Assembly: GCA_000004695.1 (NCBI GenBank) | Contig: CM000154.2 | Coordinates: 4,512,001-4,576,000 of the forward strand | Direction of reading: 5' to 3' | Origin: Dictyostelium discoideum | Lineage: Eukaryota | Length of the DNA stretch: 64,000 nt | Shown here: positions 3,001-5,670 of the stretch, piece by piece | Numbering within the stretch: the stretch's first letter is position 1 | Layout: each line of letters starts with the position of its first letter | Translations under genes and position numbers: made by a program | The notes under the pieces: model-generated | The model's input: the letters and a program-made list of their open reading frames with translations, nothing else | Databases searched by the model: none | What the model was told of the DNA's origin: nothing

Positions 3001-5670
3001 ATATTTCAAAATTAAATATTGGTAAAAATATTTTACTCACTGGTCAAACTGGTATTGTTTTAGAAATATTAAAATATTTAATTAAATATTCAAATCACTC
3101 AATTGAAAATATTATAATACTTTCAAAATCAAAATTAAAATGGGAATTAGAATTATTAATTAATCAAAGCAAATTTAAAAAAGATAATATTATCAAATTC
3201 CATTTCAATCAAATCGATATTGAAGATTCAAATAAAGTTAATCAAGTATTAAATCAATTAGAATTAAATGAAAATATTACAAACATTGATTCAATTATTC
3301 ACTTTGCATTTATGAATGATATTAGTGATATTCAACAAGTTGATATGAATCGTTTAAATAATACACATGGTGCTAAAACAATCGGAGCAATTAATCTTCA
3401 CAATCAATCAATTAATCGTTCATGGAATATCAAACAATTTATAATGGCATCATCAGTAGTTTCAATAGTTGGATCAGACCGACAATGTTGTTATGTTAGT
3501 GCATGTAATGTTATCGATTCATTATCAAAGTATAGACATTCAATTGGATTACCATCTTTAGCCATTAATTTAGGAGCGATATCATCAACTGGTTTCATAT
3601 CACGTAATAATGCAATTGAAACAATGTTCAAGAGTTCAATTTTAAATTTATTCTCACCTCAACTCATTATTAGTTCATTAGATTTATTCATTCAAAATCA
3701 ACATCAATATCCAAATTATTGTATATCAGATTTCAATTTTGAAATTTTACCATCAACTTTAACAAACCAATACCTTTCAAAATTTGATTTTGAAATTAAT
3801 ATTGTTAAAAAATCAAATCAAATGAAATCTTTCACTGGTGGTAACGGTGATAGTAATAATGAAATTATTCGTTCAACAATTTTAAATAAAATCAGTGAAT
3901 TATTATCAATTGATGAATCTAAAATCAATGAAGACCTTCAACTCACACAATATGGTATGGATAGTTTAGTAATTGTACAATTAAAGAATTTTATCGATAA
4001 TCAAATAGGTCATAATATTATCACAATTCAACAATTACAAAATAATAAAATCAATCAATCAATTGAAATTATTAAATCTGCTCATAACAAAAATAATAAT
4101 AATAATAATATTAATAATAATAATAATAATAATAATAATAATAATAATAATAATAATAATAATAATAATAATAATAATAATAATAATAATAATAATAATA
4201 ATAATAACAACAATTTAGTTAAAAAAGAACAACAATCACTTGATGAATTTATTAAAAATGAAACTAAATTAAATGAATCAATCATTTCAAGACCATATTC
4301 AATTAAAAATATATTAAATAATAATAATAATAGTAAATCAATATTCTTAACAGGTTCAACAGGATTCTTGGGTGCATATTTATTAACAGAATTAATTAAA
4401 ATGAACAATGTCTCAAAAATTTATTGTTTAATAAGAAATAATTCAAAACTAACAAATCCAATCGATGTAATTATTAATAATTTAAAGAAACATCAACTAA
4501 TAGATATGAACGAAGAATCACCAAAAAGAAAAACAAAAATAAACGACCATACAGGCAACATATCAAATGATAAATTATATGGTAATTTAAACAGTGATAA
4601 TAGTAGTAATAATCAAATAAAAGAAGATCAATTAATTAAAATCATTCCAATGATTGGTGATATTTCAAAAGATAAATTTGGTTTAACTGAACAAGACTAT
4701 TTAAAACTTTCAAATGAATGTGATATTATTATAAATTCAGCAGCAGATTTAAATTTAAAGTCAAGCTATGAAGAAAGTAAAATTGTAAATATTAACAATG
4801 TTAATCAAATTATTAAATTGTCAATTTCAAATAATAGCTCACAAAAATTAATAGTTCATTTTTCATCACTTGCAGTATTCATTAATCATCCTTTTGAAGA
4901 TGGAGAGGATTTTGAAGAAACAAATATAGTTCCAAGTTTTAATTCTACACCAGTTGGATATATTCAATGTAAAGTTATTTCAGAGAGATTATTAACAAAT
5001 GCAGCAGAATCAAGAGGTATACCATCAATCATTATTAGACCACCTGGTATGTAGCATGTTAATATTAATTGCTTGAAATTAATATATTAATTTAGTATTA
5101 ACCTTATATAATATTCCAATAACTATTTTCATTGCTATTTTAATTATAGATATATTCTCAAATCCAATAACAGGTATAGGTCATTCAAATGATTTTATAT
5201 CACTTTTAATAAAATCTTCGAAAGAGATTGGTTATTATCCAAATATTCATAAATCAGTTTTCACAACTCCAGTTACAACTATAGCTAAAACCACAATCGA
5301 TTTAATATTCAATGAAAACAGTTGGAATCAAAATAAATCAAAACCAATTTCAATTTATAATTTTAATGGTGATTCAATTGAAATGAAATCATTTTATAGG
5401 GTATTAGAAAATAGTTTTAAATGTAAAGAAATCGATTTCTATGAATGGATTGAATTAGTTTCAAAATCAAATGGAAAATCATCAAAAAGATATTCAACAT
5501 TCCACATTCACAAAAATCAAAATTTATTAATAACAAGCTCTAAAATCAATAGTTTATTCAAAATGTCAAATAGCACAAAAGAATTATTAATTTCAATTGG
5601 TTCATATAATCATCAAGATTGGGAAATTAATGAATCAATCATTTTAAATGATATTATTAACAATCATTAA
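1..5670 (+). CDS. Type I reducing polyketide synthase PKS-A, 5'-partial (enters window inside DH/linker; CMeT-ER-KR-ACP-R present). Two exons in window: <1..5046 and 5150..5670 (phase-1 intron 5047..5149, GTATGT..TAG)
   Basis: Open frame runs from position 3 to 5046 (ORF track 168..5054 is its ATG-delimited part). Motifs seen: CMeT SAM motif [12 protein letters not shown] (~nt 650-690). ER NADPH motif [13 protein letters not shown] (~2360-2400). KR Rossmann [15 protein letters not shown] (~3035-3080). ACP GMDSLV (~3955-3975). Poly-Asn linker 4081-4205. R-domain [15 protein letters not shown] (~4340-4385) and YIQCK (YxxxK, ~4955-4985). After ...IIRPPG a GTATGT donor (5047) and TAG acceptor (5147-5149) join in frame to 5150..5670 ([12 protein letters not shown]...INNH*). 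That continuation matches the uninterrupted C-terminus of PKS-D. Confidence 0.9.
4081..4205 (+). repeat. (AAT)n about 41 units, in-frame poly-Asn linker between ACP and R domain of PKS-A
   Basis: Uninterrupted AAT triplets translated as N-run in the PKS-A frame. The equivalent tract in PKS-B (12300-12355 on + strand) is about half as long. Confidence 0.9.

Follow-up and report, generated by a model that had tools for sequence, protein, structure and literature searches.

Optional product-release domains on polyketide synthases (PKSs) were mentioned in earlier genome papers (PMC3188802), and a 2025 paper reports C-terminal thioester reductases (TRs) on 19 of the 40 PKSs of Dictyostelium discoideum, its Figure 4 marking which of the enzymes carry them (PMC12828403). 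Pks5, whose domains run KS-AT-DH-MT-ER-KR-ACP without a terminal reductase (R) domain, makes free acids, the dictyodenes (PMC9618038). Here we describe a window of D. discoideum DNA, 64,000 nucleotides in length (assembly GCA_000004695.1, contig CM000154.2, positions 4,512,001 to 4,576,000 of the forward strand, renumbered below from 1), that contains four large type I PKS genes, called A, B, C and D, together with degraded extra copies. A, B and D carry an additional domain behind the last acyl carrier protein (ACP) domain, and C ends as Pks5 does. We read the additional domains as terminal thioester reductase release domains and the interruption found in those of A and B as a real intron, and we regard this reading as a whole as highly probable.

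The closest described counterparts are the TR domains of the D. discoideum PKSs (PMC12828403). They belong to the same organism group and the same family, and they likewise sit immediately behind the ACP of an iterative PKS of the order KS-AT-DH-MT-ER-KR-ACP. No substantive difference from them was seen, and it is almost certain that A, B and D either belong to the 19 TR-bearing enzymes or are their orthologues; the paper gives no intron information. Because this architecture had already been published for Dictyostelium, its presence here is unsurprising and leaves the current understanding unchanged, although it is useful for gene models.

Among solved structures, the best sequence match is the terminal reductase of MxaA, from the myxalamid PKS-nonribosomal peptide synthetase (NRPS) system (4U7W/4W4T; E 6e-25; template modelling (TM) score 0.79 over about 385 columns). 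MxaA has the same TGxTGFLG loop, YCLVR motif, Ser/Thr-Tyr-Lys triad and C-terminal substrate-binding subdomain, but it is about 22% identical, is bacterial, follows a peptidyl carrier protein in an NRPS module and carries out a four-electron reduction to an alcohol. The top fold match is the thioreductase of a Streptomyces coelicolor type I PKS (8V1X; E 2e-21, TM 0.79, 383 of 387 columns), which is likewise a PKS-attached terminal reductase but belongs to a bacterial modular PKS and is about 19% identical. Outside Dictyostelium, the nearest relatives come from cyanobacterial and metagenomic sources: they are free-standing bacterial thioester reductase-like proteins, about 390-400 residues long (P0027 of Trichodesmium among them), with 25-31% identity over most of the domain. 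These proteins have all the invariant residues in common with the Dictyostelium domains; they differ in being intronless and in being unfused to a PKS or ACP, or joined to a carrier domain only. Fatty acyl-CoA reductases of the 'male sterility' branch, such as rice DPW (7EOZ), share the Pfam family and the general fold, but their match is far weaker (E 6e-4, TMq 0.65-0.73), their substrates are free acyl-CoA or acyl-ACP, and no synthase is fused to them.

A Pfam search of the full D product returned KS, AT, MT, ER (ADH_N), KR and ACP (residues 2203-2293), followed by NAD_binding_4 (2333-2571). A, B and D are thus predicted to be highly reducing iterative type I PKSs of the order KS-AT-(DH)-MT-ER-KR-ACP-R, an order read directly for D and by homology for A and B. 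The Pfam domain order of C is that of D and terminates at the last ACP residues, a lack of R that the earlier note had not mentioned. Identity is 91% between A and B, 92% between C and D and 41-45% between the two pairs. The R domains following the ACP span 4338-5670 (+) in A, 12165-10863 (-) in B and 45840-46976 (+) in D. In a tblastn search with these three domains, the window yielded precisely three copies; no R-domain remnant appeared downstream of PKS C or of the PKS fragments, including 7405-10346.

The identity of the domains was evaluated with profiles, motifs and structures. The earlier note, made from the sequence alone, had placed C-terminal thioester reductases of the short-chain dehydrogenase/reductase (SDR) type on A, B and D and had proposed a search against Pfam NAD_binding_4 (PF07993) as a check. 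That search matched all three, with E values of 1.1e-44 (A), 2.1e-47 (B) and 2.9e-53 (D) and scores of 153, 162 and 181 bits, respectively, all above the gathering cutoff of 20.1 bits. The matches cover profile positions 1-257 in A and B and 1-247 in D, out of 258, and in A and B they continue through the splice junction. The top NCBIfam model is TIGR01746, the thioester reductase domain (E 7e-48 for A, 4.5e-43 for D). A sequence comparison with solved structures ranked 4U7W (terminal reductase of MxaA) and 8V1X (PKS thioreductase of S. coelicolor; E 1e-21 in this search) closest, ahead of NRPS R domains and carboxylic acid reductases (CARs). The TGxTGFLG, YCL(V/I)R, S-(T/S) strand and YxxSK elements are in register with those of solved R domains. 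All three domains contain the cofactor loop, as TGSTGFLG or TGTTGFLG, and IYCLIRN. The Tyr-Lys motif reads YIQCK in A, YVQSK in B and YMKSK in D; the motifs quoted in the earlier note were found where it had located them in A and D, and B has the same set on the minus strand with YVQSK.

Among 27 Dictyostelium and bacterial homologues, T9, G10, G13, G16, S180, Y212, K216 and R238 are invariant and R37 is nearly so. The Ser of the R domains aligns with the catalytic-region Thr of MxaA. The carrier-adjacent position expected of an R domain was also found, with the ACP DSL motif of A and B some 120-130 residues upstream of TGxTG. An AlphaFold model of the D R domain gave a mean predicted local distance difference test (pLDDT) score of 83 and a predicted TM score (pTM) of 0.87, and its top matches in the Protein Data Bank were 8V1X and 4W4T/4U7W (TM 0.79, about 383-395 columns aligned). 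Because this fold match is essentially full-length, it includes the C-terminal substrate-binding subdomain. The R domains of A and B, at about 40% identity to that of D, would adopt the same fold. Profiles, structures, fold and invariant residues therefore agree with the claim of the earlier note, and the domains of A, B and D are predicted, from sequence and model, to be extended-SDR terminal thioester reductases with an intact cofactor loop and Ser/Tyr/Lys triad. A second protein search with the D R domain returned two matches, of which P0055 was the sole addition.

The R domain is uninterrupted in D, as the earlier note had said, and is interrupted in A and B. If left unspliced, the main open reading frame (ORF) of A ends with CCA CCT GGT ATG TAG at 5054. 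Once 103 nt are removed, the G at 5046 meets the AT at 5150-5151 in an Asp codon, and the frame then continues for another 173 codons up to the TAA at 5668-5670, in agreement with the end at 5670 given earlier. The intron positions of the earlier note (5047-5149 and 11384-11492) and its phase 1 were exact to the base, but the IIRPPG after which it had placed the interruption belongs to the unspliced read-through GGT ATG TAG. The mature peptide of A and B would be IIRPP-D-IFSNP, which aligns without gaps against D and bacterial reductases, and the public gene models P0001-P0006 read RPPDIF or RLPDIF over the junction. The boundaries are GTATGT...(T/C)AG in five copies, with lengths of 76-184 nt and a constant junction. 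The GC content of the intron is 17.5% in A and 16.5% in B, versus 23-24% in the flanking exons, and ranges from 5 to 18% over the five copies. In A, B, L001 and L005 (the latter two being homologous loci introduced below), exon 2 runs without a stop for 171-172 codons, for which the chance is about 4e-8 in one sequence of such base composition. Identity between the introns of A and B is 81%, with three indels, versus 98.7% for exon 2. As the A and B copies of exon 2 have just 6 differences, a ratio of nonsynonymous to synonymous substitution rates (dN/dS) between them is uninformative and orthologues were used instead. Against the D. dimigraforme orthologue, dN/dS is 0.33 for exon 2 versus 0.30 for the exon-1 tail, with an exon 2 range of 0.32-0.40, a sign of equal purifying selection on the two exons. 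Together these results strongly suggest that the interruption of A and B is a genuine spliceosomal intron. An introner-like repeated element was also considered and rejected, as the only copies found were the introns of orthologues and paralogues.

The intron recurs with identical codon position and phase in A/B-type loci of a D. discoideum isolate (L001, 106 nt), of D. dimigraforme (L005, 184 nt) and of D. citrinum (L006, 76 nt), and it is older than the divergence of these three species. It is absent from the D type (D of the window and, allowing for a frameshift, L004), from the P0007 type (L002) and from the P0010 type (L003). The frame change in L004 was examined as a possible intron of the D lineage and rejected: its cause is a 2-nt TA insertion, which reflects either an assembly error or a frameshift in a pseudogene. 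A neighbour-joining tree that included bacterial outgroups unites all Dictyostelium R domains in one clade with 100% bootstrap support, and the A/B-type, D-type and P0007-type groups receive 100% each, P0010 being a single sequence. The claim that the intron is confined to the A/B lineage thus holds within the window and across the four R-domain lineages sampled. The bacterial outgroups imply that the intron was gained at some point. By parsimony only, gain is preferred, since a single event on the A/B stem suffices and any history of gain followed by loss takes more; the intron is most parsimoniously a derived marker of the A/B-type lineage, gained once on its stem. The further claim, that gain or loss of the intron tells when the two PKS pairs separated, was not supported: the pairs are 41-45% identical and every alternative order of the R lineages has bootstrap support below 50%, so no date can be placed on the split of A/B from C/D. 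That split is much older than the divergence of the three species that carry the intron.

If the solved R domains of MxaA, CARs and NRPSs are taken as a guide, the full-length acyl chain, bound as a thioester to the phosphopantetheine arm of the neighbouring ACP, would be brought to the active site of R, where NADPH bound at the TGxTGFLG Rossmann loop would give a hydride and the Ser/Tyr/Lys triad would serve as acid/base. A thiohemiacetal would form and collapse with release of an aldehyde, and a second reduction could lead to the primary alcohol, as in MxaA. In A and B, splicing of the 103- or 109-nt phase-1 intron, which lies just past the beta-strand IIRPP at the start of the C-terminal subdomain, would create the Asp codon from G/AT and thereby a full-length R domain. 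Catalysis, use of NADPH and the choice of aldehyde or alcohol as product are all put forward on this analogy, and two- versus four-electron release is beyond what sequence alone can decide.

Several observations weigh against the reading of intact reductases with a derived intron. The TIGR01746 scores, 163.7 bits for A and 147.9 for D, fall below the curated cutoff of 213.35; the model is tuned for prokaryotic annotation, and its match in A lies in two stretches owing to a low-complexity insert. The 'HxGA' motif after beta-4 is NSAA in A and B and NPGA in D, so details of cofactor binding may differ. Our literature searches found no functional or biochemical study of any Dictyostelium PKS R domain, and the searchable literature contained no transcript evidence for splicing of A or B. 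The intron survey took in four sampled R-domain lineages of those present in Dictyostelium genomes, and every alternative branching order of the four received less than 50% bootstrap support.

Three other explanations were considered. If the interruption were unspliced, translation would halt at the TAG at 5052 in A and at the corresponding stop in B, so that a Rossmann-only stub would be made and the 173 codons downstream would be a decaying relic. An in-frame TAG or TAA two codons past the donor in every copy is compatible with this, but the long open exon 2, its omega values similar to those of exon 1, the canonical GT..AG ends with a fixed junction at varying intron lengths and the gap-free spliced product all argue for splicing, and we consider translation of the unspliced form extremely improbable. 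The domains could also have a purely structural role or be of the redox-inactive 'R*' type, as Dieckmann or condensation cyclases. In fungal PKS-NRPS hybrids, R-like domains may be non-reductive, and the R domain of the PKS-NRPS psoA is among the sequence matches (at a weaker E of 3e-11). Non-redox R* domains, however, typically lack the catalytic Tyr, whereas A, B and D conserve this Tyr and the Lys, the upstream Ser, the full TGxxGxxG loop and the Arg of YCLIR. Their nearest structures are the true reductases MxaA, S. coelicolor PKS TR and CAR, and as highly reducing PKSs they have no amino-acid-derived tetramate substrate. With catalytic Tyr and cofactor loop intact, a non-redox role is very unlikely. 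Finally, the intron may be ancestral to all Dictyostelium PKS R domains and have been lost in the D-, P0007- and P0010-type lineages. The loose order of the lineages allows this, with A/B sister to all others in 19% of bootstraps, in which case one loss after an earlier gain would suffice. But spliceosomal introns do not occur in the bacterial thioester reductases that form the nearest outgroups, so that any loss history takes two events or more (gain and loss) versus one gain on the A/B stem, and most topologies demand several independent precise losses. An ancestral intron is therefore rather unlikely, and the single gain on the A/B stem remains our preferred account. Coordinates of the genes and their parts are collected in Table 1.

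Table 1 Positions of the PKS genes, R domains and degraded copies in the window
Feature	Position	Strand	Details
PKS A	1-5670	+	5' end lost at window edge; stop TAA 5668-5670
PKS A ACP	3864-4085	+	Phosphopantetheine site in GMDSL 3948-3980; DSL motif as in paralogues; PF23297 match seen on C and D
PKS A ACP-R linker	4086-4337	+	Includes (AAT)n poly-Asn run; from sequence and translation
PKS A R exon 1	4338-5046	+	Final base is the G of the split codon
PKS A R exon 1 motifs	Rossmann loop 4338-4385; YCLIR 4419-4439; HFSSLAVF 4854-4880; (G)YIQCK(V) 4956-4976; IIRPP 5025-5045	+	HFSSLAVF is the catalytic Ser region
PKS A intron	5047-5149	+	Phase 1, 103 nt, GTATGT...TATAG; in-frame TAG 5052-5054 if unspliced
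PKS A R exon 2	5150-5670	+	C-terminal substrate-binding subdomain; stop TAA 5668-5670
Degraded A/B-type copy	~6166-10346	+	84.5% identical to B 5' region over 6166-7404; frameshift near 9560; no R domain
PKS B	10863 to ~20622	-	Stop TAA 10863-10865
PKS B R exon 2	10863-11383	-	Stop TAA 10863-10865; 98.7% identical to A exon 2
PKS B intron	11384-11492	-	Phase 1, 109 nt, position as in A
PKS B R exon 1	11493-12165	-	Loop 12118-12165; YVQSK 11563-11583; IIRPP 11494-11514
PKS C	27649-35267	+	2514 aa once 74-nt first intron removed
PKS C end	35223-35267	+	Stop directly after ACP; TAG 35265-35267; no R domain
Degraded C/D-type copy	~35459-37119	+	Heavily deleted; pieces of exon 1, KS-AT, internal segment
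PKS D	38115-46976	+	2931 aa once 66-nt first intron removed; stop 46974-46976
PKS D ACP, C-terminal part	45561-45713	+	From phosphopantetheine motif GADSL (45561-45593); Pfam PF23297 residues 2203-2293
PKS D R, uninterrupted	45840-46976	+	TGTTGFLG 45840-45887; NFSSFSVF 46248-46274; (E)YMKSK(V) 46350-46370; continuous junction-region peptide 46428-46475

The A and B copies also differ unevenly along their 3' ends. Against the high identity of exon 2, the final 300 nt of exon 1 reach 92.7%, and identity drops to about 55% right past the stop, a pattern that suggests a recent gene-conversion tract between A and B ending at the stop (5150-5670 versus 10863-11383). The five intron lengths (103, 109, 106, 184 and 76 nt) are all 1 mod 3, so that their differences are multiples of three. 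This probably reflects slippage of triplet repeats (L005 has a long ATT run), five introns being too small a number for a test. At the site of the intron, the intronless D-type paralogue L004 (3400-3450) reads CCT GGT ATA TTT and A/B (window 5040-5160) read CCT G/GTATGTAG...TAG/AT ATA TTC. The first four intron bases thus match coding sequence in L004 and resemble a proto-splice site, which could be a coincidence in such AT-rich DNA. Between beta-2 and beta-3 of the Rossmann fold (window 4500-4640), A and B further share some 30-40 residues of low-complexity sequence (…EESPKRKTKINDHTGNISNDKLYGNLNSDNSSNNQIKED…), an insert that D does not have; its length differs between A and B, and it is this insert that divides the TIGR01746 match.

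The cluster grew by tandem duplication followed by decay. The TAG of C results from the loss of 1 nt of an A-run relative to D, and all homology is lost about 20 nt further on (35223-35300), where the degraded C/D-type copy starts. In the degraded A/B-type copy (A'), homology is lost within the linker-encoding (AAT)n run (10290-10346). Both R-less copies therefore break inside the ACP-R linker, and this low-complexity linker may be a hotspot of deletion and recombination that toggles the release domain. Taken jointly, the A/B intron could be a datable lineage-specific gain at a pre-existing proto-splice site in a domain of bacterial ancestry, and the linker a breakpoint hotspot that switches R on and off between otherwise 92% identical paralogues (C versus D, and likewise A' versus A/B). 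We offer this combined proposal tentatively, as a possibility that is on balance doubtful. If true, the linker hotspot would permit rapid diversification of the released products (acid versus aldehyde or alcohol).

A release domain sets the form of the product, whether acid, aldehyde or alcohol, and an inventory of intact R domains therefore aids product prediction for uncharacterised amoebal PKSs. C, without R, and D, with R, form a natural pair for the contribution of the R domain. Gene models of A and B need the 103- or 109-nt intron, as otherwise their R domains are mis-called as truncated or as separate genes. The public models P0001-P0013 from new Dictyostelium strains (L001:9929-9941) are fragmented, with R as a separate 'hypothetical protein' of 290-440 aa and with frameshifts at the junctions, so that R-domain counts from those annotations are unreliable.

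The window as a whole has a GC content of 17-27% with long AAT (poly-Asn) runs, typical of Dictyostelium, and its close protein relatives all come from the D. discoideum species group. The lengths of the C and D products would fit Pks8/35 and Pks9/36, respectively, which is a tentative lead to their names. An apparent cytochrome P450-like fragment and a large ORF, transposon-derived in appearance, lie between the PKS pairs (23121-24038 and 25600-26835, both on the minus strand). Downstream of D is an apparent type II NADH dehydrogenase gene with an interrupting intron (47095-48480, minus strand), and a run of N, an assembly gap, extends over about 50900-51020.

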